Positions 4,441-23,178 of a stretch of DNA of 54,545 nt are shown one piece after another. The notes under the pieces were generated by a model. The model saw only the letters and a list, made by a program, of their open reading frames with translations, ran no database searches and was not told the DNA's origin. Location: IMG/VR virus record IMGVR_UViG_2504643024_000001. One strand, 5' to 3'. The translations under genes were made by a program, and so were the position numbers. Position 1 is the first letter of the stretch. The number at the start of each line of letters is the position of its first letter. This DNA comes from an uncultured virus (IMG/VR IMGVR_UViG_2504643024_000001). Lineage: Duplodnaviria > Heunggongvirae > Uroviricota > Caudoviricetes.

Positions 4441-5096
4441 TCGCTTGCTCCCGATTCTTCATAGCCTGACCCTTTGCAGGCATAACATGTTCCGCCTATG
4501 GGCATACCATTACTGTAAGCCTGCCCAGTTCCGAAGCAGGCTGAACATTTGTCTTCACTTGCTCCTGATTCGGTGGGCTTAGTCAGTGCGTTTATCGACT
4601 TGACCACATTCAGAATGTGCTGGGCCTGAGTTTCCATAGTCTGATCAGACTTGTTTTGTTGGCATGTCGAATCAGAATCCGCTTGCTGCCAATAAACCTG
4701 ACCGAGACTGAATGACCGTCTAAGAGCGCTTTCAACCATGGCGACGATCTCGGTATTACAGGCTGCATTCCGCTGCTCGGCGGCTGTCAGGCGATGTTGC
4801 AGGTTGTCTCGGCTGGCTTTGAATTCGTTTCGCGCACGTTTGCTATTGCTGGCCGCCTCTCCAGCTATGGCACGAACACTTGCCAGCTCTTCCCGCAGCG
4901 CATCACGCTCTTCCTTGAATCGCTGACCTTCTTTATGCTTGCCGTGTACTGAGTTGGAGTTGATCTCAACGTAACGCTTTTGGCGCTCAAGCTCTTCCCG
5001 CAGCGCAGCCTCGCGGGCCAGGGCGGCGTCATAATCAGATGCTTTGACCCACTCAATTCCGTCGTCACATATCTTGAATCGCTTCACTTCGCTCAT
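4437..5096 (-). CDS. Coiled-coil protein with C-terminal CxxCxGxG zinc-finger pair
   Basis: CSACFGTG...CYACKGSG at the C-terminus. Confidence 0.65.
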   Translation of the reverse strand: MSEVKRFKICDDGIEWVKASDYDAALAREAALREELERQKRYVEINSNSVHGKHKEGQRFKEERDALREELASVRAIAGEAASNSKRARNEFKASRDNLQHRLTAAEQRNAACNTEIVAMVESALRRSFSLGQVYWQQADSDSTCQQNKSDQTMETQAQHILNVVKSINALTKPTESGASEDKCSACFGTGQAYSNGMPIGGTCYACKGSGYEESGASE

Positions 5097-5124
5097 CCTG
5101 CAATCTCCATCGATACCAGATCAT

Positions 5125-6087
5125 TCACGGCGGCCCCGTGCGGCTCTTTGCGTCCAGCCAGGAACGACATGACAAGAGGGGCAACGGTTGCAGGATGGTC
5201 TTCGTCGGGTTCAGCTTTGCGCCAAGGTAGGGCAGGAACGCTTCAACCTCTGTCAGCCAGGCGTTGAGCTGTTGCGGTGATTCATGCAGAAACACGAAGT
5301 CGTCGACGTAGCGAACGTAATGCTTGGCGCCGAGCTTGTGCTTGGCGAACTGGTCCAGCGCGTCGAGGTACACGTTGGCAAAGAATTGCGATGACAGGTT
5401 GCCGATCGGCAGACCGAGGCGTGCCGGCTGCGCGGTGAGGCGTTTGTGCTGCGGTACCCGGTTGAACAGATGGGCCGGGCTGCGCACTTCATAGTCTTCG
5501 CGAGGGTCGTGCATCAGGATCTGTTCGGCGAGTGCCAACCACCAAGGTTCGGTGATCTTGGCGGCCAACTGCTTGCGCAGGACCTCTTTGTCGATCGCAA
5601 CGAAGAAGTTGGCCAGGTCGCACTTCAGGTAGAAAATCGGCTTCGACCAGTTTTGACTGGCGCTGCGGATTTTTGCCTCAAGCCGTTTAGCAGCGTACAG
5701 CGTGCCGCGCTCTGGGATGCAGGCGCAACTGTCCGCTATGAAGCTGGCGTAGAAGCGCGGTGCCACACGGTTGTACAGCAGGTGGTGGACGACGCGGTCC
5801 CTGAACGCTGCCGCCCAAACCTCGCGGGCTTTCGGGCGGGTGACCACGAAGCATATCGAACGGCCTGGCCGGTAGGTGCCGGCGATCAGGTCGTCGTGTA
5901 GACCGATCAGGTTCTTCTCCAGGTCCATCTCGAAAGCCAGTGCACTGGCGCTGTTGCGCTTCGTGCGGCGGCAGTCGTAATAAGCCTGAACAAGCTCGCT
6001 GAACGGGTAGGGACCAACATTCGAATCTGCGGACGGGGCGGACGCGGAGCTCGTTGTTCTTGTCGTTGTTGTTGGAGTTGCCATCAT
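5125..6087 (-). CDS. DGR reverse transcriptase, apparently C-terminally truncated
   Basis: FRDRVVHH, LKCDLANFF, GLPIGNLSSQFFAN and YVRYVDD motifs; adjacent TR and avd; no G(I/V)DFxG motif after KTILQP. Confidence 0.93.
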   Translation of the reverse strand: MMATPTTTTRTTSSASAPSADSNVGPYPFSELVQAYYDCRRTKRNSASALAFEMDLEKNLIGLHDDLIAGTYRPGRSICFVVTRPKAREVWAAAFRDRVVHHLLYNRVAPRFYASFIADSCACIPERGTLYAAKRLEAKIRSASQNWSKPIFYLKCDLANFFVAIDKEVLRKQLAAKITEPWWLALAEQILMHDPREDYEVRSPAHLFNRVPQHKRLTAQPARLGLPIGNLSSQFFANVYLDALDQFAKHKLGAKHYVRYVDDFVFLHESPQQLNAWLTEVEAFLPYLGAKLNPTKTILQPLPLLSCRSWLDAKSRTGPP

Positions 6088-6127
6088 CGAAGTTCATGTT
6101 GAATGCGTTGTTGGCGGAGCGCTGCGA
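6023..6127 (-). repeat. DGR template repeat (TR)
   Basis: 105 nt with 10 AAC codons and 31 adenines; matches three VRs with A-specific mismatches; lies between avd and RT. Confidence 0.96.
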
Positions 6128-6298
6128 CCTATCGTGCTATCTACGTCGCCAAGCCGAAGGCAGGGCCGATCAGCGAGGAAACTACGCGAGACCTGCACGG
6201 ACGCTTTAGACCGTCGGTATCTCTGATGCGTATGGCGGTGACCCAGAGGTCAGCGGCACGACCAGATTCAATTCGCACAGACCTGAAAGCCGTGACTC

Positions 6299-6655
6299 TC
6301 AGGTGGCGGGCGCGGTTGGGGTGGAGCGTTTCCAGGCATTGGCCTGTTTGCCGATTGAGGTGGTGACCTCGATCGCGGTGGCGTGCTGCCCGACACTGAT
6401 GAACCGGCTCTCTTTGAAAAGCCGCATCAGGAACTCGATCACCTGGACCTTCTCAACCAGCAAGGTCAGGTGTGGGCGCTTGTCCCGGGTCGAGTTAGCC
6501 CGGGCAATCAACATCAGCACGTCGATGCACTCATCGATGACTCGCTTTCCGAGAGACTGCTTGAGATCTCGGGGTATGTTGCGAGTGAGGTTCGTGGCCA
6601 TCTGAAGCAGGCCGAGCGAAGCCTTATAGATGCTCAAATCCGTGTGCATCGCCAT
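6299..6655 (-). CDS. avd: DGR accessory variability determinant (four-helix bundle)
   Basis: 118 aa basic helical protein (L..Y....L, IGKQANAW) between target and TR. Confidence 0.88.
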   Translation of the reverse strand: MAMHTDLSIYKASLGLLQMATNLTRNIPRDLKQSLGKRVIDECIDVLMLIARANSTRDKRPHLTLLVEKVQVIEFLMRLFKESRFISVGQHATAIEVTTSIGKQANAWKRSTPTAPAT

Positions 6656-6676
6656 TCGGCAGCTCTCCAAGAGCAA

Positions 6677-6694
6677 CCGGCCGCAAGCGGCCGG
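6677..6694. other. GC-rich hairpin downstream of VR1 (candidate DGR homing cruciform)
   Basis: CCGGCCGC-AA-GCGGCCGG perfect inverted repeat 14 nt past the target 1 stop. Confidence 0.75.
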
Positions 6695-6708
6695 ATTAAA
6701 TAAGCGAA

Positions 6709-7329
6709 TTAATCAATCAATTGACTGCGGACGGGGCGGACGCGGAGCTCGTAGCTCTTGCCGCTGGTGTCGGAGTAGCCATCATCGAAGAGCATGAGGA
6801 ATGCGTAGTCGGCGGAGCGCTGCGAAGATGACCAGTACCAGGTTGGTTTAAAGGCTTCAGCGCCACCAGCCTGGAAGGCTTCCATCGTGGTCTGGGCTGG
6901 CGAGTCTTCAGTGTGAAGCAGCCCCACAGGCTCGCTGTTCGGGTTGTCACCGCTGCGACCGTACTGCCAGTTCGTTTCGGTTGTCGGCTTGAAGAGGCGG
7001 TATTGCAGCTCTTGCACGTCTCGGGCCGGGATCGCCCAGTCGGTGAAGCCGCCGATATCCAGAGCTAGCACTTGCTGTGCTAGTTCGCTGCCAGCGGCCG
7101 CCATCGCTTCGGTGTTGGCGCGGCTGCTGGTGAAGCTGTTAGCACCCTCGATCTTTTCGCCGTACTCGCCCCAGGCACCGCTCAGTTCGTGCGCGGCGCC
7201 GGCGGTGATGTTCAGGTAGCGCTTGCCGGTGTCCGGGTCACGGGTGATACCAGAGAAGAAGCCGCCGCCGTAGGCTTGGCCGATTTCCGGGATAGTTATT
7301 GCTGGCGCTGCTTGCTGTGCTGCTGACAT
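6709..7329 (-). CDS. DGR target 1, C-type-lectin-like (DUF1566-like) protein
   Basis: C-terminal VR; YWSSS...RVRPVR motif. Confidence 0.9.
   Translation of the reverse strand: MSAAQQAAPAITIPEIGQAYGGGFFSGITRDPDTGKRYLNITAGAAHELSGAWGEYGEKIEGANSFTSSRANTEAMAAAGSELAQQVLALDIGGFTDWAIPARDVQELQYRLFKPTTETNWQYGRSGDNPNSEPVGLLHTEDSPAQTTMEAFQAGGAEAFKPTWYWSSSQRSADYAFLMLFDDGYSDTSGKSYELRVRPVRSQLID
6725..6825 (-). repeat. DGR variable repeat VR1
   Basis: 13 mismatches to TR, all at TR adenines. Confidence 0.96.
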
Positions 7330-7354
7330 GGTCTTTCCTCTTTTCGAAGGCAAC

Positions 7355-7374
7355 AAAAAAGGCGCTGCTGCGCC
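7355..7374 (-). terminator. Short hairpin plus U-tract downstream of target 2 (terminator or VR2 homing hairpin)
   Basis: GGCGC-AGCA-GCGCC-TTTTTT on the minus strand. Confidence 0.45.
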
Positions 7375-7414
7375 CGGTGCCGATCAAGAACGAATGATTG
7401 AAGGATTAAATAAA

Positions 7415-7519
7415 GAATCTGCGGACGGGGCGGACGCGGAGCTCGTTGCCCTTGTCGTTGTAGGTCTGAGTGCCATCAGCGAAGGTCATGCCGAATGCGA
7501 AGCTGGCGGAGCGCTGCGA
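7415..7519 (-). repeat. DGR variable repeat VR2
   Basis: 12 mismatches at TR adenines plus 4 contiguous non-adenine mismatches. Confidence 0.92.
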
Positions 7520-7869
7520 ACTCGACCAGTAGCAATCCTTCGCGAACAGTTCCGGCACGTTCACCCAGCAGTGGTACAGCTCGGCACAGGCTGGCAGGTA
7601 GAAGTCGTGATGACCGTCTGCCTGGTGTTCGGCGCATGCATCTGCTGCTGGATACTTTCTCTCGTCATCGTTGCCAATCAGTACCTGCGTGTTGCTATAG
7701 CCGTCGGTCTTGCTGAGGCCTTCCACCTCAACTCCACGGCCACCCCACTCAAGACTGCCGACATCCTTGGCTGCGATGATCAGGTAGTGCGCCGGCACAT
7801 CGCCACGAGTCGCTACCAGACCTCCGTTGAAACCACCTTGGCCGGGCCACTCAGCGCCGAGCGCCGGGA

Positions 7870-7919
7870 TGTTGGTTGGTGCGATTGGCTGGACTGTTGG
7901 TTGGTGCGATTGGCTGGAC
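7870..7919. repeat. Perfect 2 x 25-bp tandem duplication
   Basis: tgttggttggtgcgattggctggac at 7870-7894 and 7895-7919. Confidence 0.97.
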
Positions 7920-8067
7920 ATTCGCAGCTGGCGGTAGCACCAGGGCAAACGTACTGGCCAGCGCCAGTTTTGCCAGTTGTGACGCGGGCATCTTGATCGT
8001 GGTGTCGCCGTGCTTGAGGGTGATCATTTCAGGTTTCATCGTGATACCTCTTTATGTGAAGTTGAAG

Positions 8068-8378
8068 TTATTCGTCGTGGCAGATGCGCAGAGCCTCTCG
8101 GTTGTAGGCGAGCTCCAATTTGCGCGACACGTTTTCGGGTATTGCGTAATTGTGTCGCGGAGGTGCGAAGAATGGCGCTGAACCCTGCGGTCCGAGGGCA
8201 TGCAGATGATGTAGGGCCAAGGTCATTGCCTCGCCTTGCTCATCGATCTGGTGCCACTCCATCAAGTCGGCCAACACCTGCCGGGACCGGCCATGGCATG
8301 CATTCGCAACTCTTCCTCGCCGCGAGTCTTTCGTCTCGCCGCAGCCTTGGCTGAGCGGTCTTTCGGTTCGGCAGCCAT
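8068..8378 (-). pseudogene. Phage hypothetical protein with a 1-nt frameshift near 8286
   Basis: RBS and ATG at 8378 (MAAEPKDRSAKAAARRK...) run out of frame with ORF 8068-8277; total span 311 nt. Confidence 0.65.
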
Positions 8379-8387
8379 CGTCAACTC

Positions 8388-9026
8388 CTATCGCTTTGGC
8401 TCTTTCGCGAAAAAGGCCGGCTGAGGGCCGCTGCTAGCCTTCGGATAGTCAATATCGAACTTTGCCAGTAGCCGCTCGAAGTTTTTGGCGGTGGATTGGA
8501 TGCTTTCTCGCGCCTTATTTCTGCTGAATCCGAGTGCTTTGAACTCCTTGATCATCTCGGCGTTCTTGGCGTCCCGCTCATCATCAACAATCTTTCCGCC
8601 CTTGTTGGCCCGGGTATGTGCTGGCTGGAACTTGAAGTCACCCTTCTTGGCAATCCTGTTCAGCTCGCGGAGCGGAATCCCTGTGCACAGAACTGCTTGT
8701 GCGTAGGTCATGGTCTCAGCCAGGCAACGGATATGTTCCACCTGTTCAGCCTTAGCCTGTTCGCGCATTGCCGCCCGCTCTTCGCGCTCGATGTCGCGCT
8801 GAGCCAGCTTGTCGAGCCATTTAGGCTCAACTGCTTTCTGGACTGGCTTGACCTTCTTGCGTGGTGGCGGCTCATGGCGAATCGGCGGAGGGATGAAGTT
8901 CGGCCCTTGCAATACCTCAATAGTCCCTCCTTTGTTCAAGAAGGCTTCCTGAAGTAGGGCCAGTTCGTGGCGTTGAGGGTCGAGCATCTGGATCATGGAA
9001 AGCTCAGTGCTGACGTATGCGTTCAT
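8388..9026 (-). CDS. Hypothetical phage protein
   Basis: 212 aa operonic ORF; AFLNKGGTIEVL motif. Confidence 0.7.
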   Translation of the reverse strand: MNAYVSTELSMIQMLDPQRHELALLQEAFLNKGGTIEVLQGPNFIPPPIRHEPPPRKKVKPVQKAVEPKWLDKLAQRDIEREERAAMREQAKAEQVEHIRCLAETMTYAQAVLCTGIPLRELNRIAKKGDFKFQPAHTRANKGGKIVDDERDAKNAEMIKEFKALGFSRNKARESIQSTAKNFERLLAKFDIDYPKASSGPQPAFFAKEPKR

Positions 9027-9039
9027 GCTGCTTTACCTC

Positions 9040-9681
9040 TCACGCCGCCTTTTTCATAAGGCGAATGACCATGTCATCGACACCGCGAAGAAAGTCGACT
9101 ATCTCGACTTCGTAGTCTGCGATTGCCTTTTCATTGCGCTCGACGCGGTGAATGAATAGCTGTAGATGCTCGGGCATGCGCGGATCGAACGAGACGAAAT
9201 CAGCGAACTCCGCATCCGATGCCCACATGTTGTGTAGGATCTGCGGGGCATGCTCTGGTGGTAGGCGATCAGCTTCAAGGTAACCAAGGTGCGTGGCACT
9301 CTTCGGGCACTTGGCTTCCCATACGCCTTTGCGGCCCTGGTCCTCGATGAACCCATCCACGCTGCAACCGGCCATGAAGTCGGTCAGGCAGATGAATCCG
9401 CACTCTTGAACGATCAGGCCAGTTTTCTGTTCGTAGGCCATGCGGGCGAACGGCTCTTGCTCGGTGCCCCACATCATTTCCTTGCTGACGAAGAAGTCAT
9501 CGGCGGGTAGGCCGGTTAGACGCTCAAGGCCAAGCTGGATTCGGTAATCGCGCCGCGTCGCTGCTTCGCCTGATTTGATTGCCGCCAGGATGTCCTTGGC
9601 GCGCGAGCCGGTTGCGCGTCCTGCACGGTCCTGCTTCCATTCAAGGGTGCCCTGGGCATGAGTTGAGATAGTGGATTTCAT
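9040..9681 (-). CDS. Lambda-exonuclease/YqaJ family protein
   Basis: QGTLEW..R.G..TGS, WGTEQEP.AR, S.DG, EAKCP, DFVSFDPR. Confidence 0.9.
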   Translation of the reverse strand: MKSTISTHAQGTLEWKQDRAGRATGSRAKDILAAIKSGEAATRRDYRIQLGLERLTGLPADDFFVSKEMMWGTEQEPFARMAYEQKTGLIVQECGFICLTDFMAGCSVDGFIEDQGRKGVWEAKCPKSATHLGYLEADRLPPEHAPQILHNMWASDAEFADFVSFDPRMPEHLQLFIHRVERNEKAIADYEVEIVDFLRGVDDMVIRLMKKAA

Positions 9682-10574
9682 TGGGGAATCTCCTCAAATT
9701 CGACTTCGTCATCGGCATCCGACTGTTCCGGCTCCGACTCAGCTTTAGGTGCGGAGGCTTTCAGCACTACGCCGCGAGCACCGACCGCCGTCTTAAATGC
9801 ATCGTAAGAGGTCATGTCCTTGACCTCATTGATGGCCGAAACGCCGGCCTTCCATACCTCGGTGAGAGCTTCCGGGGTTGCCGCTGCGTTGGCTTGGGCG
9901 ATCCAGTGAGCGGCAAGTTCTGGATCATGCGGCGCCGGGCCAGGCTTCTGATTGGTGGTCTGGGTACCTTCCTGCGGCCGAAGCTCTTCCGGCAGGTCTT
10001 CAATGTCCTGCGTGAAGATGTCCGAAGCGGCGGTTACGTTCAGCGTCATGGCGATCATGGCGCGCTTGCAGGCCATCTTTAGAATGGTGTTGGCAAGATC
10101 GGCGGCCTCGGTGCGGACCTGATCTGCGGTGTTGCCGTTTTTGTAGTACTTCTTCCGACGCAGGTTTTCCGGGGTTGCGTTCAGCTCCGCCTTGCAGATC
10201 ACGGCACGCCACTTGTACTTTTCTTCGTTGGACGAGCATTCTCCAACGCCTTCGCCCAAGGCTACGCCGGTCGTCTGGTGACGCCCCATACAGGTGACGC
10301 GGTAGCGGGCCTCGCCTTGCACTGACAGGTCTTCGATCTTGTATTCCTGCGCCACCCGGAAGGTCACGCACAGCACCTCAGCGCCGGGCTTGTAGAGGGT
10401 CGGCTTATTGGTGCCAGGGATGGTGCCGTAGTGGGTCTCACGCTTCATGATGTCTCGCATCACTTCCTGCACCAGGTTAACGCGCTGGCGAATCTCGACG
10501 GCAGAGAAGCGGTGTGCCTCGGCGGCGGTAAGGCCAGAGGTCTCGCGCGCTGGCATTTGGATAATCTCGTTCAT
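9678..10574 (-). CDS. Putative ssDNA-annealing recombination protein
   Basis: Adjacent to exonuclease; KPTLYKPGAE and KMACKRA...SDIFTQD motifs; acidic tail. Confidence 0.65.
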   Translation of the reverse strand: MNEIIQMPARETSGLTAAEAHRFSAVEIRQRVNLVQEVMRDIMKRETHYGTIPGTNKPTLYKPGAEVLCVTFRVAQEYKIEDLSVQGEARYRVTCMGRHQTTGVALGEGVGECSSNEEKYKWRAVICKAELNATPENLRRKKYYKNGNTADQVRTEAADLANTILKMACKRAMIAMTLNVTAASDIFTQDIEDLPEELRPQEGTQTTNQKPGPAPHDPELAAHWIAQANAAATPEALTEVWKAGVSAINEVKDMTSYDAFKTAVGARGVVLKASAPKAESEPEQSDADDEVEFEEIPQ

Positions 10575-10581
10575 GACGACC

Positions 10582-11145
10582 TCAGTAGGTGATAGCGATG
10601 GCTGGAATCTTGCGCTGAGCGATGAGGGTGATCGCCTGCTTCGCGCATTCCTCGGTCATACCGCCAGCAACAAAAGCGTCGAGTGCCGCGCGATTGATCT
10701 TGGCTTTGTGGGCCTTGTCAGCCTCGCGCAGCTTCTCTTGGCGCAGGATCTCGTCGGCGGCGGCCTTCTGGCGGGCGATCTCGTCTTGCTTGGCCTTTTC
10801 AACTGCAGCCTTCTGGTTCTCGATGGCTGCCAGCCGATCACGCTCGGCCTTTTGTTCGGCCTCTATCTGTTCACGCTTTGCCTGCTCAGCCTTGCGCTCA
10901 GATTCGGCGGCAGCGAGCTTCAGATCGTTCTCGCGCTTCTCGGCGGCAACCTTGGACTTGCTGACCTTGGCGGCCAGCGAGGCGATACGGTCGCGGCCCT
11001 TGGCGGTGGACAGGTCCGGTACCTGGGAGCCTACTTCCTCCTTCACCGCTTGTAGGAATGGCTTCAGGCCGTCCTTCACGTAGATGGCCGGAGCATTGGC
11101 TTCGCTGATGTCGTCGATGGTGACGGCAAGCTGATTGGCGGACAT
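10582..11145 (-). CDS. Phage coiled-coil protein, possibly internally deleted
   Basis: PDLSTAKGRDRIASLA N-terminus joined directly to an Ala/Glu/Lys-rich tail. Confidence 0.65.
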   Translation of the reverse strand: MSANQLAVTIDDISEANAPAIYVKDGLKPFLQAVKEEVGSQVPDLSTAKGRDRIASLAAKVSKSKVAAEKRENDLKLAAAESERKAEQAKREQIEAEQKAERDRLAAIENQKAAVEKAKQDEIARQKAAADEILRQEKLREADKAHKAKINRAALDAFVAGGMTEECAKQAITLIAQRKIPAIAITY

Positions 11146-11301
11146 GGGGATTCCTTGCCGCCATGCAGGCAGCGCTTGAAGTTATTGTTTATTGAGTGAC
11201 GCGATCAGCGAGAGCACCGAGCAGCATCAGGAAGGTGAAGACGGCGAGAGCAGGGAAGGAGCCGCGCCAGATCAGAAGTCGGCGTGCGCGTTGGTGAGAG
11301 G

Positions 11302-11499
11302 TCATGGCTTCAGCTCCTCGTCTGGGTCAAGGCCGAACTCACGACAAAGCGCATATGCCACGCCCGATCCGACTCCAAAAATATCCATGAAGAGAATCCA
11401 GCGCTGATTCATGTATCCGCCGCGCCGTTTCCCGCGCATGTTTCGCATGACACTTTCCAGCAGCTCGCGCTCAGTGTATTCGCATCCTGAGAGCATCAT
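11302..11499 (-). CDS. Hypothetical phage protein
   Basis: Small ORF; FGVGSGVA..LCREFGLDPD motif. Confidence 0.55.
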   Translation of the reverse strand: MMLSGCEYTERELLESVMRNMRGKRRGGYMNQRWILFMDIFGVGSGVAYALCREFGLDPDEELKP

Positions 11500-11927
11500 T
11501 CCGCCACCGCCTCAGCCAAGCTGATCTTCTTCCACGATGGTGGCAGCTTTACGGCTGCGATCTTGCCGTCGTCGTTGGCTTGCAAGATGCTCAGGATCAT
11601 GTGTTCCATGCCCTGTGGCACTTTAGCGTTACAGAGTTGGCCGTCGACTTCGATGATGATTTGCACGATCGAGATGTTCATCGCGACACCGCCACAGGCA
11701 GGCTGATCTGCCGAGGCGCGCCGGTTTCTTTGAATAGGCTGTATTGCATGAGCCAGATGGTCAGGCCACAGGCGAGGATCCAGTAGAAGGTCTTCATTGC
11801 TACTCCCTCCAATACTGAATCGGCACAAAGGTGTATTGCCCTGGTCCGTGCCGATGGACCCGCCACAGGTCCAAGTCGATGCGCTTCAGGAGTTCGTCGA
11901 AGGTGCAAATGCGAGTGGCGAGGCGTT

Positions 11928-12125
11928 TCATGGAGACACCTCAACCAGCCGGCCTCTAGGGTCTATATCCCAGTCGCCCTCCATGAATGCGCCGTTGTCA
12001 CGGCAATGATGACGCCAGCTGCCTTTCACTGGGCATTCAAGCTCGCATACGAGGGTTTCGCGCGGACGCTTGAGAACCCCTTCCAACTCTTCGTCGATCA
12101 GGGTTTTTACCAGGGAAGTTGTCAT
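11928..12125 (-). CDS. Hypothetical phage protein
   Basis: RBS, operonic position. Confidence 0.5.
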   Translation of the reverse strand: MTTSLVKTLIDEELEGVLKRPRETLVCELECPVKGSWRHHCRDNGAFMEGDWDIDPRGRLVEVSP

Positions 12126-12270
12126 TCCGGATCTCCATGCCGATCGTGTCGGGCGTCGTCGAAGCCGAGCTGCCAGCTGAACGCCTCGTTACTGCCGTAC
12201 TCATACGGGTTGCAAGTGGTCTTGCCGTAGGCCAGGAAGCCTTCGCCGTACTTGCAGTTGGGATTCACAG

Positions 12271-12483
12271 TTATCTTGAGCATGCAGACAACTCCTTGCG
12301 CTGCCGGCTGATCTTCAGCAGCTTGGCGCTGTAGTGGTGGAATTCTTCGGCGGTGATGTCGCTGGCGGTGAAGTGGCGGACGATCAGGCCCTCAGTGAGG
12401 GTTTCGTCAAGATCGGTCGCCTCTGGCAGTTCAAGGGCTTCCAGTGCCCGGTCGATGGCGATGTGCGGGCTCAAAATCCGCAC
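12271..12483 (-). CDS. Hypothetical phage protein
   Basis: Operonic ORF. Confidence 0.55.
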   Translation of the reverse strand: MRILSPHIAIDRALEALELPEATDLDETLTEGLIVRHFTASDITAEEFHHYSAKLLKISRQRKELSACSR

Positions 12484-12920
12484 CGTCGCTTTTCATGGTC
12501 AGCTTCGCGCTTGGCCTCGATGTACTCGTCGACCTTGCTCTCGACCAGCGCATCAGCCAGGGCATGAATGACCGTGCCTTCGCCCTGATGAGGCCCTAGC
12601 GCCGAGACTGCCCACTTGTACAGATGGTCATCCGTATGGCCGCGACGGACGATCTCGATCAGGATCTTTTCGATTCCGCACTCCTGGTCTAGCTGGGCTT
12701 CCATGTGGGTGACCACGGAGCGGACCAGATCCTTGTGCCGGACCAGTTCGCGCTCACGCCCCCAAGGGTTCGGGGCATAGGCGGACCCTTGGTCCATAAG
12801 GTCCTCTATTGCCGCCTTCTTCCACTCGGCGACGTCTTGCTCGTCAACCGGCGCCTCTTCGTCTTCCGGAGGCAGCATGTTGTCGTACCGCGCCTGGCAA
12901 TCTCTCAGTGCTTCTTGCAT
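12471..12920 (-). CDS. Hypothetical phage protein
   Basis: GGAGG RBS, 149 aa. Confidence 0.65.
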   Translation of the reverse strand: MQEALRDCQARYDNMLPPEDEEAPVDEQDVAEWKKAAIEDLMDQGSAYAPNPWGRERELVRHKDLVRSVVTHMEAQLDQECGIEKILIEIVRRGHTDDHLYKWAVSALGPHQGEGTVIHALADALVESKVDEYIEAKREADHEKRRCGF

Positions 12921-13254
12921 GGCCGAACCCTCCGACGTTTAACCGCTGGCACGAACACGCACGCCAGGCCGTAAAGCTCTGCATTCGAAAAGCATGTACG
13001 CAGGAGAAGCGCGTCGGCTTCACGGTTGCGCGGGATGCTGGTGTTCATGATTTCCTCCAACTGTTTGGTTGCTGAAAACACTCGGCTGCACTCATCCATT
13101 CCACTGGTTGCCGTTGGGCGTGGAGGGGAGTGCATGCGGGTGGATTCGGAGGGAAGTGGGTGCAGGCGGCCGGCACGTCCCGGCACGTATCAGGTCTGGC
13201 CACGCCGACTCGCGCAGCCCCTCGATTCACCTGCAAAGAAGAGCAATAAATGAA

Positions 13255-13833
13255 TTAACGAATGAATAATCTGCGGACGGGGCGGACGCGGAGCTCGTTG
13301 ACCTTGACGCCGCCGTAGTAGGAGTAGCCACCACCGAAGACCATGGTGAACGCGAAGTCGGCGGAGCGCTGCGTGCTGGTCCAGTACGCCCCTTTGGTAA
13401 TCAGTCCATTCACCCACACCTGGTGCATATCTGCAGGTGAGCCTAGGAAGAAGTCATGGTGACCGTCGGCGGTGTATTTGGCGGCGGCGTTGGCGGCAGG
13501 GCGATCACCTTCCGATACAAGCTGCTCGGTGTTCCTCATGCCGTCCCACTTGCTTGTGGCGCCAGATTCGATACCGCGACCGCCCCATGCGTGCTCACCG
13601 ACGTCCTCGGTGGCGAGGATGAGGTAGTGGAAAGGAGCACCTTCGCGAGCTGGAACTGGGCCGCCATTCACACCGCCTTGGCCGGGCCAGTAATCGCCCA
13701 GCGCCGGAATGAAGTCGGTGGCCTGAGTGTTGGCTGGCGCGGCACCGACAAGGCCGGTCAGCACTTGTAGAGCCAGCGCGGCGCAAGGAGTGGTTAGTGT
13801 GGTTGCGCCGTGGTTTACGGTAATCAGTTGCAT
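13255..13833 (-). CDS. DGR target 3 (remote), DUF1566-like protein
   Basis: C-terminal VR; paralogous to target 2 (IPALG..WPGQGG.NGG, HYLI.A..DVG, ADGHHDF). Confidence 0.9.
   Translation of the reverse strand: MQLITVNHGATTLTTPCAALALQVLTGLVGAAPANTQATDFIPALGDYWPGQGGVNGGPVPAREGAPFHYLILATEDVGEHAWGGRGIESGATSKWDGMRNTEQLVSEGDRPAANAAAKYTADGHHDFFLGSPADMHQVWVNGLITKGAYWTSTQRSADFAFTMVFGGGYSYYGGVKVNELRVRPVRRLFIR
13268..13373 (-). repeat. DGR variable repeat VR3
   Basis: 17 mismatches, all at TR adenines, plus one extra codon in the AAC run. Confidence 0.94.
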
Positions 13834-14024
13834 GATTGGGTTCCTTGTCGGGATTGTTCGTTGCCTTCCCACTGCCGACGATCCATCGACACTGGTGAAA
13901 ATCGTGGGTTTACGCAGCTTGAGCCGAGCGGGTGTCGGGCAGCTTCGGGCTTGGCGCGTCTTGCGTGATGAAGACGTAAAGCCAGAGAAGGGCGATCATG
14001 ATTTGTGCTCCATGGGAGTGAATG

Positions 14025-14052
14025 AAGAAAGCCCGAGGGGTAGTCGGGCTTT
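14025..14052 (-). terminator. Intrinsic terminator-like hairpin in the PL transcript
   Basis: AAAGCCCGA...TCGGGCTTT stem. Confidence 0.55.
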
Positions 14053-14185
14053 CCAATCAACCAGACCGCAAGCCAGAAACAGCTGGCCGCGATCTGTGAG
14101 CCGGTCGCACTCTGCTGGAGTCGGCGACCGGGTGTTTCGTCAGTGGTGTGATGCAGGGGGCCGCATTGCGCGGTGTGGACTCTTC

Positions 14186-14322
14186 CGCATCGGGGTGTGA
14201 TCTGGCAGGGATTCGAACCCAAAAGACTTACGTCGATTTCGGCAGCGCTACCTAGTCGACCGCACCGGCTATACCGGGCACCCTGATCCGCCGAGTGAAA
14301 CTCCAGATCACACCCCGATGCG
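14186..14322 (-). ncRNA. Candidate structured RNA closed by a 20-bp perfect inverted repeat, containing a tRNA T-arm-like motif
   Basis: Arms 14186-14205 and 14303-14322; GGGTTCGAATCCC on the minus strand. Confidence 0.45.
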
Positions 14323-14375
14323 CTCTCATAGAGAGGATCGGGCAGTTTTCGTCAGACTGACGTGGCGCTGGTTGT

Positions 14376-14819
14376 TCAGCCTTCACGAACTCGGCTGATC
14401 GAGTTCGGCTCATTCAGAAATGGCGACAACCTCAGCTGAAGCATTTTCACGTGGTCGGCCTGCTGGTCGATCAGACCGCGAATGTCTTTGACTTCGTAGA
14501 ACTGCATCAACTGCTGAACCTCCGTGTCGGGCATTGGAATTGTCCGTGGCTTCATATCTGCCACGCGCACGGTGTAAACCTTGTCCTCGCTTATCCCGCA
14601 GACAATCACACGAGCTACTGCTTCCATGTTGCCCTTGTGAATCGTTGCAGTTGGCGGGGACTGGATCGGCACATCCACCCAAGTGTTCGACTGATAGGTG
14701 CCGACCACCTTGTGGGTGTAGATCTCGTTCGGCACGCCGTGGCGTTTCATCTCGATCAGCGCGTAATCGCCAAAGCTGGGGAACGATGATTTAGCTAAGT
14801 CGTAATTGAATTCACTCAT
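14376..14819 (-). CDS. Hypothetical phage protein
   Basis: GGAG RBS, 147 aa. Confidence 0.65.
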   Translation of the reverse strand: MSEFNYDLAKSSFPSFGDYALIEMKRHGVPNEIYTHKVVGTYQSNTWVDVPIQSPPTATIHKGNMEAVARVIVCGISEDKVYTVRVADMKPRTIPMPDTEVQQLMQFYEVKDIRGLIDQQADHVKMLQLRLSPFLNEPNSISRVREG

Positions 14820-14893
14820 TTGTGACTCCCGTTGATTTCCAATGCCGCCTCATCGAAGCGGCATCAGTAAATCTGTGGGTATTGCCTTTCTCC

Positions 14894-15049
14894 TCAGTAA
14901 CCCAGCCAACCCAGCACTTCTTCACCGCTGTATTCTTCGCGGTCGCCAATGTCCTGCATGAACTCGACGAACGATGAACCGTGCTTGTCGATCTCTCGGC
15001 GAGCTTCTTCTCGGCTGACGGTGGCATCGCAGGCTTCTTGGTAGTTCAT
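14894..15049 (-). CDS. Small hypothetical phage protein
   Basis: AGGAG RBS, start MNYQE. Confidence 0.55.
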   Translation of the reverse strand: MNYQEACDATVSREEARREIDKHGSSFVEFMQDIGDREEYSGEEVLGWLGY

Positions 15050-15389
15050 GGCGCTGCTCCTTTTCGGGGTGATTTTCCAGATGACCCTGTCGCCAAGGTC
15101 ATCGAGGAAATCTGTTCGCCGTGACCCGCTACTGGCGTCGGCCACTGGCTTGAATCTCTTGTTGTTTGTCTGATCGCGGCTCTGCCCATCAGAAAACTGT
15201 TTTCGGTGCTTTACGCTGCACACCCGGGTCAGTTGCCAACCCTCTGAACCGTTAGGCCGGTTCATCGCTGCCTTCTTGCTGGCCGGTGTTGATCCGGCAG
15301 TCTTGAAGCTGGTGCATCTAAAGAGCGGTCGGTCCTTTTCAGGCCCTTCGCTGCCGGTCCCTTGTTAGGTGCTCGGTGGCGATGGGTGA

Positions 15390-15431
15390 AATATAGGATA
15401 GCCTTTATTTCGAGTCAACAGGCTTGCCTTT
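15390..15431 (-). promoter_or_regulatory. PL promoter with two OL operators
   Basis: TTGACT-N17-TATATT on the minus strand; ATAGG-N4-CCTTT (15393-15406) and ACAGG-N4-CCTTT (15418-15431) resemble the OR palindromes. Confidence 0.8.
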
Positions 15432-15644
15432 ATTTTTTTGCTCGGGCACAAAAAATCCCGCTCAGTGGCGGGATCATAAATTCGGGTGGGATGTCAGGGG
15501 CGTAAAAAAGCCCACACGATGGCGGGCCAATGCCGAGAGAAAGGAGTTTAAGACTCGGCGAACTCAGTGTAAGCGGTATATGCGGTATTGCAAGGCGAGA
15601 ACCAAAAAGCCCGCGCTGGACGGCCTCATCTATCCGGGACTGGT

Positions 15645-15890
15645 TCAGTCTTCTGGATCGATCTCTTCCTCTGGTTTCCACCTGGCAACCAGGTTAGCCA
15701 TCAGCTCGGCAATGGCGTCACTGTTGTCCGCCAGTACCTCTAGATGCTCGCTGACTCGGCCATATGTATCCGTGGAGCCGCGCTGATCAATCCAGATGCT
15801 GATCTCTTCGATCGCGCAACCGAGCGCCATGATGTTCTGGTTGAGGCGGTAGAGCAGGGCGGGGGTCGGATCGTCGGGAAGGGTCGGCAT
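15645..15890 (-). CDS. Hypothetical protein (immunity-region accessory)
   Basis: ORF with GGAGG RBS. Confidence 0.6.
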   Translation of the reverse strand: MPTLPDDPTPALLYRLNQNIMALGCAIEEISIWIDQRGSTDTYGRVSEHLEVLADNSDAIAELMANLVARWKPEEEIDPED

Positions 15891-16160
15891 GGCATTTCCT
15901 CCATTAGAGAAGGAAAGGGTAGCAGCGGCCAAAAAAATGGCCCGCATGAGGGCGGACCTAAGGGAATCCTTGAAGGGAGTGTCACTGATACGTCAGCTGA
16001 GGTCAGTGTAGGTCGAAAGGAAGAGGGCGCCAGGTCGATACGAAAAGCTCCGTACTCGGCGGGCTTGGCCATTCAAGGAGCCTCGCCCCTATGCGTGAAT
16101 ACCGATTCAATAATATAAAAGCCCGGCGCTGGGCCGGGCTTGAGGCGAAATGCGATCTTC

Positions 16161-17141
16161 CTAGTCTTCAGCAAGTTTCAGGTCGAGCTCTTGTTGTGTA
16201 CCAAATCTCGCGGAAAATTTCTTTTCGTAGTCAGCGCTTGAACTTGATGACTCGGCCATCTCCAAAATGCGGCCCATGTGAATACGTAGTGCTCGAGCGC
16301 CAATTTCATTGAGGAACTGGAAGAGTTTCTTCTTTTTTGGGTCTCGATCCCTCAGAGCGCGGAGTAGCTCAAGAATCTTTCCGCTGCTTTGAGCGAGGGG
16401 ATAGTAAATGTGCCGGCGAGTGAGGTGCATCAACTTCCATGGTTTACCTCTAGCGGGCACTGGAATTTGGTAGAGTCGGTGCCAAGCAAGATAGAGCTCA
16501 TTAGGGAATTCCTGCTCGTACTTCCGAGCCTCTTCCTGCACAAAATGTTTGAAGGCTGCAACGATTTCTTCTCTGGTTCTGTCGAACCCGGAAAGAGCAT
16601 AAACCAGTCCAGTAATACCAGCTTTTGCCGAGGCGTTCAGGATGATGTGAGCTTGCCTGGCGGCGTTGACCTGGGACGGCAGCAATTTCCCGTCATTTTC
16701 GACCGCAATTACTACCTTGCAGATATCGATAAGGATTGTTACATCATAGCCATTAAGCTGCCTAGGCGGCTGATTGTGGCCCACGGGAGGCCCTTGAAAA
16801 ACAAGAGGATTATCTAACTTTTCGCGGAGTTCTGGCCCGACGTAAGCAGATATCGTTTTCCCGCTTACGAAGCGTGGAAGACGACTCCCCCCCTCCCCAA
16901 GACCTAGCGCTTCACCCATACCACGCTGGCTTATTACCGCTGTCTTCCTATCGTCATCAAGAACGTAACATTCGACGTCGAATCCAAAATCGGTGCTGAA
17001 ATTTCCTTTGTGCGTGGCGCGCATTGGCTTATCTCCCCAGCGAGCTGCAGCGGCTTTCTTCGCTATCGCTTTTCGCTCTGCTTCCGTTAGAGCTTCCGCT
17101 CTTGCTATACCGCCTTTAGCTTTTCCAGATGGTTCCGACAT
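16161..17141 (-). CDS. P63C-domain protein
   Basis: GGIARA..L...ER..IAKKAAAARW N-terminus, CYVLDD, AKAGITGLVYALSGF, YEQEFPNELY, KKLFQFL. Confidence 0.8.
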   Translation of the reverse strand: MSEPSGKAKGGIARAEALTEAERKAIAKKAAAARWGDKPMRATHKGNFSTDFGFDVECYVLDDDRKTAVISQRGMGEALGLGEGGSRLPRFVSGKTISAYVGPELREKLDNPLVFQGPPVGHNQPPRQLNGYDVTILIDICKVVIAVENDGKLLPSQVNAARQAHIILNASAKAGITGLVYALSGFDRTREEIVAAFKHFVQEEARKYEQEFPNELYLAWHRLYQIPVPARGKPWKLMHLTRRHIYYPLAQSSGKILELLRALRDRDPKKKKLFQFLNEIGARALRIHMGRILEMAESSSSSADYEKKFSARFGTQQELDLKLAED

Positions 17142-17224
17142 GCAAGCATCCTCACTTTTGTATGCTTGCATAGTATTGGTATGGGCTGGGGAAGTGCAAG
17201 CATAAAAAAGGCGCCATGCTTGCA
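17140..17224. promoter_or_regulatory. Two TGCAAGCAT-N12-ATGCTTGCA palindromes upstream of the P63C gene
   Basis: 17141-17170 and 17195-17224, identical arms and spacer length. Confidence 0.7.
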
Positions 17225-17308
17225 AAGCTGGCGCCTCTGTAATTTCTTGTGCTATTCGGTTTTTCGGATGCTTATGTTTAATAAATATACAAATCCCCGC
17301 CACCCCAC

Positions 17309-17536
17309 CTACTCGGCCTTCCCCCGCACAATCCTTCCCGCTTTCACCTCATCAGCATACGAAGTCAGCCGATCCGCATCCTCATAGAGTCTGCCGACCA
17401 GCTGCATCAGCTCCAGAGCATCAGCGTCACTGATCCGTTGCGCCAGCCTGCCGAGGTCAATGCAGGACTGTTCAAGGTTGAAGGCGATCCCTTTCAGGTC
17501 GCGCCTCAGGTCCTGCTCAGGTTTTGTCAGACCCAT
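17309..17536 (-). CDS. Hypothetical protein
   Basis: AGGAGG RBS inside junction repeat. Confidence 0.65.
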   Translation of the reverse strand: MGLTKPEQDLRRDLKGIAFNLEQSCIDLGRLAQRISDADALELMQLVGRLYEDADRLTSYADEVKAGRIVRGKAE

Positions 17537-17574
17537 GATGACCTCCTACAAATCCCCGCCGCGCCAGTTGGCAT

Positions 17575-17763
17575 TCAGCCTGCCATAGCCATTCTCAGCA
17601 CTATCACAGCCTCAAGTAGCTTTTGTACCTGGGTCACGACAACCGAAGCCAGATCGTCACTCCCTGCTACTTGAAGAGCGTCCACAACATCGAGCAGTTT
17701 CTCCACCTCGACCTCGATGGCGTGGACGGATTCGCCTATATGGTATTGAAGTGAGTGCGCCAT
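17575..17763 (-). CDS. Hypothetical protein
   Basis: GAGG RBS, start MAHSLQY. Confidence 0.55.
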   Translation of the reverse strand: MAHSLQYHIGESVHAIEVEVEKLLDVVDALQVAGSDDLASVVVTQVQKLLEAVIVLRMAMAG

Positions 17764-17833
17764 CTTGGTCAATCCTCGCGCTAGATCTCCTACAAATCCC
17801 CGCCGCACCAGATGACTCGGCCCAAGAGGCTCA

Positions 17834-18136
17834 TCAGGCTTCTTCGGCCAGCCTCAGAAGATGGGTATATACCGTCTGGGCATCTGCAAACCTCAGGTGC
17901 CCACAGCTGGAGCAGGTGAGCTGAAAGGCAGCCGTGTAACCCCTTGCCAAGCCTTCGAATCGTATAGGAGTGGCCTTTCCCTTCAGGCTTTCGAGAATCC
18001 ATTTCGAGGAGTCGCAGATCCAGCAGGACTTCATATGCCCAATTTCCTTGAGCGCGGCGCTTACCGCCGAAGATGGAAGATCAACTATCTTTTCCAGATC
18101 CTCGACCTTGTCCCTTTTTTTCTTGATGCCTGACAT
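17834..18136 (-). CDS. Zinc-ribbon protein
   Basis: CWIC...CSSCG; GAGG RBS. Confidence 0.6.
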   Translation of the reverse strand: MSGIKKKRDKVEDLEKIVDLPSSAVSAALKEIGHMKSCWICDSSKWILESLKGKATPIRFEGLARGYTAAFQLTCSSCGHLRFADAQTVYTHLLRLAEEA

Positions 18137-18201
18137 ATTGACCTCTCTACTATCGGGAGTTTGGCTTGCATCGCTGCGCCGGATCGCCAGACTTGGAATG
18201 C

Positions 18202-18840
18202 TCAGTAGCGGCCGAGCACCTTGCTGGGCGCGAGGATGTTGCCGACGTAGTGGATCTTCTCGATGTCGCTGCGCTCGATCGTCCGGCGCTCACCATAGGC
18301 AGCATTGACCGACATCAGGCTGACTTCTTCATCGTTCTGGAACAGCAGCTCCTTGACCATGCTCTGGCCGTCCAGGGTGGTCACCATGACGTACTCGCCG
18401 GGAACCAAGCGGTGGTTCGGCTCGCAAATGGCTACCCAGCCATTGCGGATGGCTGGGGCCATGGAATCGCCTTTGAGCCTCAAGGCATAAGCATCCTCAT
18501 CCCGCGAGTAGGTTTCAACCCAGCCATCGGCCTGATTGACGCCGATCCAATAGCCGTCCGGCCCAAGCTGAGCGGTGCCCACAATGTCGATCCTTCGCGG
18601 AGGGGAGGTTATTGGTGGTCCGGGCTCAACGTTTGACTCTGCCGCTCCAGATCCGTCAGACAGCCACACAGGGTCGACGCCACATACCTGCGCAAGCTTT
18701 ACCAGATAACCGCTGGTGCGCGTAAGGCCTCGCTCTATCTCGGAAACGGAGGCCTGCTTTATTCCTGCGCGTTCGGCGAGCTGGGCCTGCGTTAGACCTG
18801 CATCTTTGCGAGCTTTTTTCAGTCTGTCTTTGAGTTCCAT
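18202..18840 (-). CDS. cI: CI-like repressor (XRE HTH + S24 peptidase)
   Basis: LTQAQLAERAG HTH, GDSMAP and VKEL catalytic motifs; divergent from cro. Confidence 0.93.
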   Translation of the reverse strand: MELKDRLKKARKDAGLTQAQLAERAGIKQASVSEIERGLTRTSGYLVKLAQVCGVDPVWLSDGSGAAESNVEPGPPITSPPRRIDIVGTAQLGPDGYWIGVNQADGWVETYSRDEDAYALRLKGDSMAPAIRNGWVAICEPNHRLVPGEYVMVTTLDGQSMVKELLFQNDEEVSLMSVNAAYGERRTIERSDIEKIHYVGNILAPSKVLGRY

Positions 18841-18847
18841 GACCGGA

Positions 18848-18914
18848 AAGATAAAGGGCAGCCTTTGAAGTTGCAAAAAGGTGTTCCTTTGCTCTAACAT
18901 AAAGGCATCCCTTT
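18848..18914. promoter_or_regulatory. OR: three AAAGG-N4-CCTTT operators at 24-bp period with PR/PRM
   Basis: 18853-18866, 18877-18890, 18901-18914; TTGCAA..TAACAT (+) and TTGCAA-N17-TATCTT (-). Confidence 0.85.
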
Positions 18915-21616: not shown

Positions 21617-22459
21617 ATGACAACCGACAACATCATCGCAATCAATCCTCGGGGGTTCACCCGAATGGAAAACAGCCTGATGGATGCCTTAATGGTCATT
21701 GATCTGCCAGGCCGTGAGCTGAAGGTTGCCCTGTTCATCGCCAAGGCCACTATCAACTTCCAGGCTGGCCCTGTTCGCATCAAGGCTGCTGAGGTATCCA
21801 AATCCACTAACCTGCACCCTGACGTCGTCTCCAAGGCCATCAGCCACCTACTGAAGCGCCGCGTGATCTTCCGTGAGGGTGGTTCGCGCGGCGATATCGG
21901 TCTGTGCGACCCGAAGGAATGGGCCTATGTTGAATGTCCGAGTCGGACCAAACGGTCTGACTCGGGCCATATGGGCCGAGTCGTAAGCATCACGAGACAG
22001 ACCAAAACAGACGACTCCCTTCTTTATTCTAAGAAAGAAACCTTATTACCTCTTTCTACGAAAGAGAGTAATGCCCCCCTTGAGAAATCCAAGCGCGCTC
22101 CCCGAAAAACCAAGCCAGCTGCCGACTCGGCTTTCGGAAAGGCTCAGATGCTCGCTGACAACCCGCACCAGATCCCTGATCAACTGCTTGTCGATTGGTT
22201 GGCCCTGCGCAAGACCAAGCGCGCCGCCGTCAGCCTGACCGTGTGGGATGCCCTGAACGCCGAACTGACCAAGTGCGCCGAGCTGGGGATCCTCGCTAAG
22301 GACGCGATGACCGAGGCCCTGTCCGCTGGCTGGCAGGGGTTCAAGGCCGACTGGATCGCTAATCGACTCGCTCAAGCTGGCCGTGCCCCGTCTGCCGCTT
22401 CTGCCGGCCCAGACTTCTACAGCACCGCATGGCGCAATGACTTGAGCGACGAGCTATGA
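21617..22459 (+). CDS. Replication initiator, lambda O-like
   Basis: GFTRMENSLMDAL N-terminus, HTH, DWLALRK..K C-terminal domain. Confidence 0.85.
   Translation: MTTDNIIAINPRGFTRMENSLMDALMVIDLPGRELKVALFIAKATINFQAGPVRIKAAEVSKSTNLHPDVVSKAISHLLKRRVIFREGGSRGDIGLCDPKEWAYVECPSRTKRSDSGHMGRVVSITRQTKTDDSLLYSKKETLLPLSTKESNAPLEKSKRAPRKTKPAADSAFGKAQMLADNPHQIPDQLLVDWLALRKTKRAAVSLTVWDALNAELTKCAELGILAKDAMTEALSAGWQGFKADWIANRLAQAGRAPSAASAGPDFYSTAWRNDLSDEL
21938..22070. other. Putative replication origin inside the O-like gene
   Basis: Three related GAGTC/GACTC-bounded imperfect palindromes followed by an AT-rich tract. Confidence 0.55.
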
Positions 22460-23178
22460 GAATCGTCAAGTCGGTCACGCCCGCCGCTGCAAAGGCGATA
22501 CGCACCGGACAAGGATCTGCCCCGGCACCTGTCCAGCTGGGCAATGTCGACAGCCAGACCGCTGAAGTGGTCGAGAAGATTTTCCGCCAGCTCAAGGCTA
22601 TTTTCCCGGCATGGAAAACCGCTTGGCCAGACGAAAAGGCGCTCGGTTCGGCGCAGCGCAGTTGGACCAAGGGCTTCATCGACGCCGGTATCTGCGACAT
22701 CAACCAAGTCGAGTTCGGGATCAAGCAATGCCGCAAGAGCGGCTCGCCGTTCGCGCCAAGCATCGGCCAGTTCATCCAGTGGTGCACGCCTGGACCAGCG
22801 GCTTACGGCATGCCAGCAGCCGCTGACGCATGGATGGAGGCTCTCATGGGTACTGCCAGCCACGAAGCAGTGCGAATCGCCGCCAACGCTACCGGAATTT
22901 TCGACCTGCGATCAGCCAAGCAGGATGACAAGGCGATGCGTGCACGCTTCGAACGCAACTACGAAATCGTTCTACGCCGCGCCCAGTCCGGCCAGCCGCT
23001 CGACGGCAAGATTCTCACCGGCATCGGTCACGACAGTCAGAAATCCCAGCTTGAACTGGCTGATGAACTGGCTGACCAGCAGACCCAAGAGCGGATCGCG
23101 AAGCAAGGCATCCCGTCCGACGGCGCATCTGCTCGTGCTCAGCTGATGGCGAAATTTGGCAAGAGGAGTGCGCAATGA
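22456..23178 (+). CDS. Replication protein P-like (helicase loader)
   Basis: IFRQLKAIFPAW and PSIGQFIQWC motifs; follows O. Confidence 0.85.
   Translation: MRIVKSVTPAAAKAIRTGQGSAPAPVQLGNVDSQTAEVVEKIFRQLKAIFPAWKTAWPDEKALGSAQRSWTKGFIDAGICDINQVEFGIKQCRKSGSPFAPSIGQFIQWCTPGPAAYGMPAAADAWMEALMGTASHEAVRIAANATGIFDLRSAKQDDKAMRARFERNYEIVLRRAQSGQPLDGKILTGIGHDSQKSQLELADELADQQTQERIAKQGIPSDGASARAQLMAKFGKRSAQ

Follow-up and report, generated by a model that had tools for sequence, protein, structure and literature searches.

The window, meaning the whole 54,545-nt stretch of DNA that was analysed, is a lambdoid prophage with an integrase at 1–1050, a repressor at 18202–18900, the O and P genes at 21617–23178 and a right arm of baseplate and tail genes. 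On the minus strand, the early-left arm exhibits the order T3, some 15–16 small ORFs including a YqaJ exonuclease gene, T2, T1, avd, the RT-15 RNA, the template repeat (TR) and then a reverse transcriptase (RT) whose closest relatives lie in Pseudomonas (Table 1). TR, avd and a DGR-type RT are thus located on one replicon with T3, and the arrangement corresponds to the CLec2 class, architecture B1, of Wu et al., defined by the order TG-TG-AVD-TR-RT, DUF1566 targets and a third target kilobases off. The separation of VR3 from the core cassette by about 15 ORFs, as given in the original prediction, agrees with this count.

Table 1. Features of the DGR cassette, the remote target gene and the sequence behind it.
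Feature	Positions	Strand	Basis
T3, remote target gene, 192 aa, DUF1566/Lcl_C-type C-type-lectin fold	13255..13833	-	homolog names, profile, fold match, tree
VR3, 17 A-to-N substitutions, +3 nt relative to TR	13268..13373	-	TR alignment
C-TCC private TR tag within VR3 (family consensus T-CAG)	13321..13324	-	TR/VR comparison
TAC TAC GGC GGC, four codons where the TR has three AAC	13309..13320	-	TR alignment
AT-rich, G-poor tract behind VR3, inferred candidate for an IMH-distal cis signal	13235..13270	-	AT content
Conserved three-way-junction element, likely a structured RNA within the early-left transcript	13158..13237	-	covariation
T2, slot-2 target gene, frameshifted	7406..8039	-	Lcl_C, E 8.9e-7
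VR2, 12 A-substitutions and 4 non-A mismatches, ancestral T-CAG allele	7415..7518	-	TR alignment
T1, slot-1 target gene	6709..7329	-	Lcl_C, E 1e-7
VR1, 13 A-substitutions, TCC tag; behind it a 7-bp GC hairpin (CTTG loop)	6725..6824	-	TR alignment, stem scan
avd, accessory gene	6299..6655	-	Pfam bAvd, E 4e-12
RT-15 structured RNA, avd-TR spacer	6125..6315	-	Rfam RF03018, 179 bits
Template repeat (TR), private GGC AAC TCC allele (6074-6079), then (AAC)3	6024..6126	-	repeat alignment
DGR reverse transcriptase, 3'-truncated	5125..6087	-	RVT_1 domain; frame length relative to relatives

A weak match to the Rfam family sX6 at 10786–10964 (minus strand; 25.7 bits against a gathering score of 40) lies within a coding region and is probably due to chance. 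The sole sigma-70-like promoter in 12900–18300 is located at 15390–15418 (minus strand), upstream of T3 and on the same strand, one being found where 2.4 are expected by chance. Also upstream of T3, a long imperfect inverted repeat spans 14180–14325; similar motifs occur in the left arms of related prophages, and it is perhaps an RNase III-type processing stem.

VR3 is located 7,247 bp from the TR and encodes the last ~35 residues of T3, at the 3' end of a C-type-lectin ORF. As originally described, its 17 substitutions all fall at TR adenines, the TCC codon is kept and one codon is added; the alignment with the TR gives 8 A-to-G, 8 A-to-T and 1 A-to-C changes and zero mismatches at other bases. 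The constant, GC-rich 3' end of the VRs comprises 26 nt, followed by sequence unlike that behind the TR, a pattern consistent with the distinction between IMH and IMH*. In a masked scan of the whole 6.2-Mb genome, the 5' half of VR3 matches at 38 of 39 positions, and 28 of 28 non-A positions of the 3' part are matched at the four copies only (next best, 22/28), so that the likeness between VR3 and the TR is not due to chance. Since the repeat was found only at these four copies, the scanned genome holds neither a second TR nor a host target.

VR3 had also been singled out as the most mutated VR. This holds within the window (17 substitutions versus 13 and 12) but has no special meaning, as 29 of 202 VRs of the family have at least 17. 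A more general tendency of remote VRs to be more heavily mutated than proximal ones was considered and rejected: the mean number of A-substitutions is 13.8 for remote VRs (n = 30) versus 14.3 for proximal ones (n = 171; P = 0.11), and of 28 loci, 4 have the remote VR as the top-mutated one, with 3 ties. Remote VRs as such are present in 28 of the 92 distinct loci with at least 9 kb of upstream sequence, at distances of 2.7–9.5 kb in related loci.

The template that wrote VR3 can be approached through non-adenine positions at which the TR departs from its family. A total of 160 RT loci were fetched, and the repeat could be anchored in 130 of 161 sources, the window included; the 31 loci without an anchored repeat, mostly with distant RTs, are omitted from all pair counts. 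The canonical TR, identical in 79 of the 130, contains GGC AAT CAG, and GGC AAC TCC occurs in a single one, that of the window. A TCC-type repeat was found neither in a scan of viral contigs nor in 400 congeneric genomes, and the 23 metagenome hits to the TCC pattern all correspond to unrelated sequence, none being a VR or TR. Within the window, the four tag bases are common to TR, VR1 and VR3, and VR2 holds the T-CAG of the family. Elsewhere, none of the 173 VRs under a canonical TR deviates from T-C-N-G at the tag positions. Variant TRs are present in 10 other loci, and there the tag positions of the remote VR agree with the local TR in 22 of 22 cases. Slot-2 VRs agree with the TR at 39 of 48, the four of the window's VR2 included, so that other VR2s fall behind as well.

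The original prediction that VR3 was retrohomed at a distance by this TR is upheld by the private TCC allele, which is common to TR, VR1 and VR3 only. VR3 is best read as a product of retrohoming by the local TR, and the presence of the private tag in it is a natural tag transfer. The tag thereby identifies the template behind a distant VR, where surveys infer the template from similarity alone. The evidence comes from one genome with no sister strain; among sequencing reads, one DNA run contains 6% of the words, with patchy cover and nothing on VR3, and no RNA run is listed.

The private TR allele is itself a four-base block change. Its 14-mer is also present at the 5' end of a Cupriavidus TR (L162:9901-9915), the only such case among the fetched loci, hinting that the TCC allele may be a patch from a foreign TR. 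A separate observation concerns the TRs of loci L024, L032, L035, L036 and L114, where A-to-N changes occur in blocks matching their own VRs, a pattern that would be expected had a VR converted the TR or the TR undergone retrohoming itself.

The extra codon of VR3 had been attributed either to RT slippage on the AAC run or to a sister TR with (AAC)4. When AAC-run length is scored over homologous TR/VR pairs, as was put forward with that proposal, an extra codon recurs elsewhere and no (AAC)4 TR is found. Among 259 TR/VR pairs outside the window, three length differences were identified: +3 in L116 (VR2), +5 in L025 (remote VR) and -1 in L111. A gap in L022 is an alignment artefact of net length 0 and is uncounted, as are L141 and L143, which have 66-nt cores of another TR family. 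A viral scan for longer repeats returned four stretches, namely L025 again, L295 (+3), L294 (+2) and the TR of L296. The scan for net deletions in VRs returned 0 shortened repeats in viral sequences, and the baseline scan for normal length returned at least 165 stretches, a figure which gives no exact indel rate. In L295, the +3 is located in the same (AAC)3-GAC tract, in a proximal VR2 under a normal (AAC)3 TR; neither a remote slot nor an expanded TR is therefore needed. At the protein level (117 of 120 homologous proteins parsable), 2 of 116 homologs besides T3 carry one additional residue at the same place, and the one-codon expansion thus appears to recur at roughly 1–2%.

With the same +3 in the proximal VR of L295, RT slippage on the AAC run, as first suggested, is the likeliest source of the extra codon. 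In L116, VR2 reads CAC TAC GGC opposite two AAC of an unexpanded TR, and in L025 the two copies of a 5-nt duplication differ at A (TATCAG, then GTCAG). Since these copies mutated independently, copying from the TR RNA is required, which points to the RT step. Slippage at AAC has been proposed before: length differences were reported in 25 of 372 DGRs, with 74% of indels adjoining AAC (Wu et al., 2018, PMC5758913), and the model is restated in a paper of 2026 (PMC12875486).

Alternatively, VR3 may be a true remote target whose additional codon arose by exact duplication of GGC or TAC at the DNA level, through replication or second-strand slippage after integration, and was kept because the loop tolerates Gly. 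The (AAC)3-GAC tract is expanded in five cases (the window, L295 and L005 as DNA; P0023 and P0086 as protein, with GG), and each of them has an identical neighbouring codon or GG. The background of identical neighbours or GG in the tract is 38–51%, so that five of five corresponds to ~0.01–0.04 in a post hoc comparison and leaves room for such a duplication. The independently mutated copies in L116 and L025 speak against it, and GGC is in any case what the GAC codon most often yields (121 of 241). Duplication in DNA is therefore possible but, on balance, unlikely, and slippage during copying from the TR is preferred.

The homologs of T3 are named DUF1566, and the protein matches phrog_4245 (E 1.9e-23) and, in a profile search, 8q4e (E 7.5e-4). 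The same structure, the C-terminal domain of Legionella Lcl, is the best fold match of the T3 model (VIA-align Z 7.9, rmsd 4.0, 102 aligned), and C-type lectins fill the top rows; the predicted fold has a mean pLDDT of 81.6, falling to ~47–50 in the VR. Pfam returned no match for T3 itself, and Foldseek none against the PDB at E<=0.001. Viral DGR targets are mostly structural, according to the preprint of Roux et al. (bioRxiv 10.1101/2020.04.01.020958). Given its location among early rather than tail genes, T3 may have an intracellular binding role.

In a quick tree of 142 target bodies, the T3 body falls, among the rows listed, within the slot-2 clade beside the slot-2 genes of L022 and L024 (SH-aLRT 99), with amino acid identities of 74% and 69%, respectively, versus 43% for the best remote-slot gene. 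At the nucleotide level, the body is 85–90% identical to L022 slot 2 and the flanks are 85–95% identical to the L022 remote slot (best 40-nt windows on each side). By these comparisons T3 is a mosaic in which remote-slot flanks enclose a body of the slot-2 type, and the nesting of its body among in-cassette genes implies that the gene moved at some time. This raises the possibility that VR3 was tagged while in cassette slot 2 and that its body later moved to the remote slot, slot 2 being filled anew from a different phage, which would account for the ancestral allele of VR2. In that case this copy would be no demonstration of retrohoming at a distance. The grouping with slot-2 genes and the contrasting affinity of the flanks fit such a course, as does the YqaJ exonuclease gene between the slots. 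Conversely, two exchanges after the TR change would be needed. The protein P0002 has the same mosaic structure, with the same N-terminal linker and body, yet carries the ancestral Q at normal length, which indicates that the mosaic is older than the tag; the DNA identity of T3 to slot-2 relatives of only ~82% likewise points to an old move. The move of the T3 body thus looks to predate the tag, and remote VRs track their own TR in the 10 other loci described above. A move after tagging is accordingly judged very unlikely, and rewriting of VR3 in its remote position by the local TR is retained.

The remaining alternatives concern the source of the tag. A sister TR with TCC-(AAC)4, acting in trans or earlier in the lineage, could have written VR3, and the length of a TR can change, as a 15-nt duplication in the TR of L296 illustrates (L296:9998-10113; both VRs of normal length). 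This second half of the original proposal on the extra codon does not hold up, since the 60-nt core is present in 130 of 130 TRs, the genome has a single TR, and neither viral contigs, nor 400 congeneric genomes, nor the metagenome pattern hits yielded a TCC-type repeat; furthermore, VR1 is tagged at normal length and +3 occurs under normal TRs (L295), so that a sister TR is extremely unlikely. Gene conversion from VR1 rather than retrohoming is scarcely credible: although GGC TAC TCC and an initial GAC are shared by VR1 and VR3, TAC and GAC rank among the most frequent products of AAC, the flanking variable codons differ, and the identity around the tag extends over 10 nt only, too short for a conversion tract and an indication that VR1 and VR3 were written independently by the local TR.

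The regions behind the VRs bear on target recognition. In BPP-1, a GC stem of 7–10 bp with a GRNA tetraloop is needed 4–34 bp after the VR (Guo et al., 2011, PMC3240598), and the CTTG loop behind VR1 of the window is unlike this rule as given there. Such hairpin repeats were reported in 127 of 372 DGRs and are absent in 66% (Wu et al., 2018, PMC5758913). Downstream of VR3, the best perfect stem is 5 bp at a distance of 86 nt, which is not a target site of the BPP-1 type. The original observation that no compact GC hairpin follows VR3 is correct in this respect, but the region is not devoid of structure, as a conserved, covarying three-way junction starts 36 nt behind VR3. The suggestion derived from the missing hairpin, namely that VR3 is recognized differently, loses its basis: perfect stems of at least 7 bp lie behind 74 of 101 VR1s but are rare behind VR2s (14 of 82) and remote VRs (7 of 33), so that a missing hairpin is normal for the family. 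An AT-rich, G-poor tract of ~30 nt lies behind all three VR classes, with an AT content of 0.68–0.70 versus 0.48 after TRs.

Over 38 distinct copies of the junction, both partners vary in 12 of 23 pairs and pairing is kept in 96.8% of cells, far more than in shuffled or slid controls; the 38-copy alignment that scored the covariation also served to derive the structure. Likewise, the model gives the window copy 82.8 bits, that copy having belonged to the training set. It is the covariation that supports the junction, since single-sequence folding downstream of VR3 is not significant (z -0.70 and -0.95), and a search of window positions 4500–18500 gave no Rfam match over it at E<=1. There are 59 G-U cells against 6 A-C cells, which favours a single-stranded structure of the sense strand over a cruciform. 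The junction is located behind 20 of 35 remote VRs, 24 of 110 slot-2 VRs and 0 of 116 slot-1 VRs. The possibility that it belongs to DGRs only was rejected: of the 12 hits from 149 congeneric genomes, 6 lie directly behind a VR and 6 lack an upstream VR (one of the latter from the unpublished genome G099), a fuzzy VR match in L473 being scored as spurious. Most likely, the junction is an RNA element of the early operon that is frequently located next to target genes.

It is conceivable that the AT tract and the junction, without a cruciform of the BPP-1 type, constitute target recognition in the DGRs of Pseudomonas phages and form a portable "slot" for swapped lectin bodies, diversified in sequence and length at a distance; this proposal is speculative and quite unlikely as it stands. 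The tract, the junction and the slot mosaic nevertheless offer handles on target recognition without a GRNA hairpin and on the ligands of small lectin-fold proteins of the early operon. A literature search, mostly short of subscription journals, returned no published description of the junction or of early-operon targets. In Pseudomonas phage vB_Pae_U9 (L463:7395-8600), two tandem lectin-fold genes with VR-like ends, the second of which is annotated on the wrong strand, have a junction between them, and no TR or RT is seen within 8 kb on either side; the pair possibly represents orphan targets.

The present state of the element differs from that of its relatives. The RT frame comprises 300 codons, versus at least 360 in 128 of 129 relatives, and is thus not full-length; homology stops near 5187, just before the conserved GVDFVG stretch, which is missing. 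The break (5125–5190, minus strand) is followed by ~60 nt of unrelated sequence and then by a segment found 1–4 kb further downstream in relatives, as after deletion or recombination. In slot 2, a perfect tandem duplication of 25 nt at 7870–7919 shifts the reading frame of T2. With a truncated RT and a frameshifted T2, the DGR is most likely now frozen.

The TR RNA, RT and Avd of DGRs are diffusible, so that any gene ending in a TR-homologous VR with a 3' cis tract should be rewritable. An account that accommodates the sequence pattern of VR3, its private tag, the tracking of the TR by remote VRs, the recurrence of +3 and the truncation of the RT would therefore run as follows. T3 would occupy a "remote slot" that is conserved in the lambdoid early-left operon. 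The TR of this lineage would have changed from AAT-CAG to AAC-TCC, after which VR1 and VR3, but not VR2, would each have been rewritten from the changed TR independently, VR3 by retrohoming in place. While writing VR3, the RT may have slipped back by one triplet on the AAC/GAC run, leaving an extra codon in the variable loop. The loss of the C-terminal part of the RT (~65 aa) and the frameshift in slot 2 would have come later, freezing the locus. Taken as a whole, the view that T3 is truly a non-adjacent target of the CLec2-class DGR belonging to the prophage itself, with tagging, slippage and later loss of the RT, is held with good confidence.

The layout of T3 and its one-codon expansion are both real, and both are already tabulated for Pseudomonas DGRs; the novelty implied for the layout and the AAC-adjacent indel in the original prediction is not sustained in view of Table S1 of Wu et al. 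(2018, PMC5758913). In that survey, non-adjacent targets occur in 45 of 372 DGRs, many inside the same prophage, and the table gives third DUF1566 targets at -8.9 kb in Pseudomonas sp. GM67, -7.8 kb in P. fluorescens NZI7 and -4.1 kb in Pseudomonas sp. GM18, together with a 3-bp indel adjoining AAC in a proximal VR of P. fluorescens A506. T3 is thus an ordinary instance of a published layout and indel type, and its value is that of a clean natural experiment, provided by the private four-base tag in a VR 7 kb off. This tag, the junction and the mosaic are modest additions.

Like the window, the CLec2/DUF1566 DGRs of GM67, NZI7 and GM18 exhibit the order TG-TG-AVD-TR-RT, have ~30 adenines in the TR and carry their third target some kb upstream; the GM18 contig corresponds to locus L087, whose RT is 97% identical to that of the window. 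The window differs from these three in the indel in its remote VR, the private non-A tag in its TR, the truncated RT, the frameshifted slot 2 and the slot-2-type body of its remote gene. Bordetella phage BPP-1 (mtd-avd-TR-brt; Guo et al., 2011, PMC3240598) has mutagenesis at A, TR, avd and RT in common with the window, and its VR is likewise C-terminal and part of a C-type-lectin fold, but it diversifies a single adjacent target, a tail protein, in contrast to the three small early-operon genes found here. The isolated, temperate Pseudomonas phage Cruim01 (PP179333) resembles the window in that it has two adjacent targets together with avd, RT-15, TR and RT, while a remote VR lies ~9 kb upstream of its TR; unlike the window, its RT is annotated as full-length, all of its VRs are of normal length and the TCC tag is absent.
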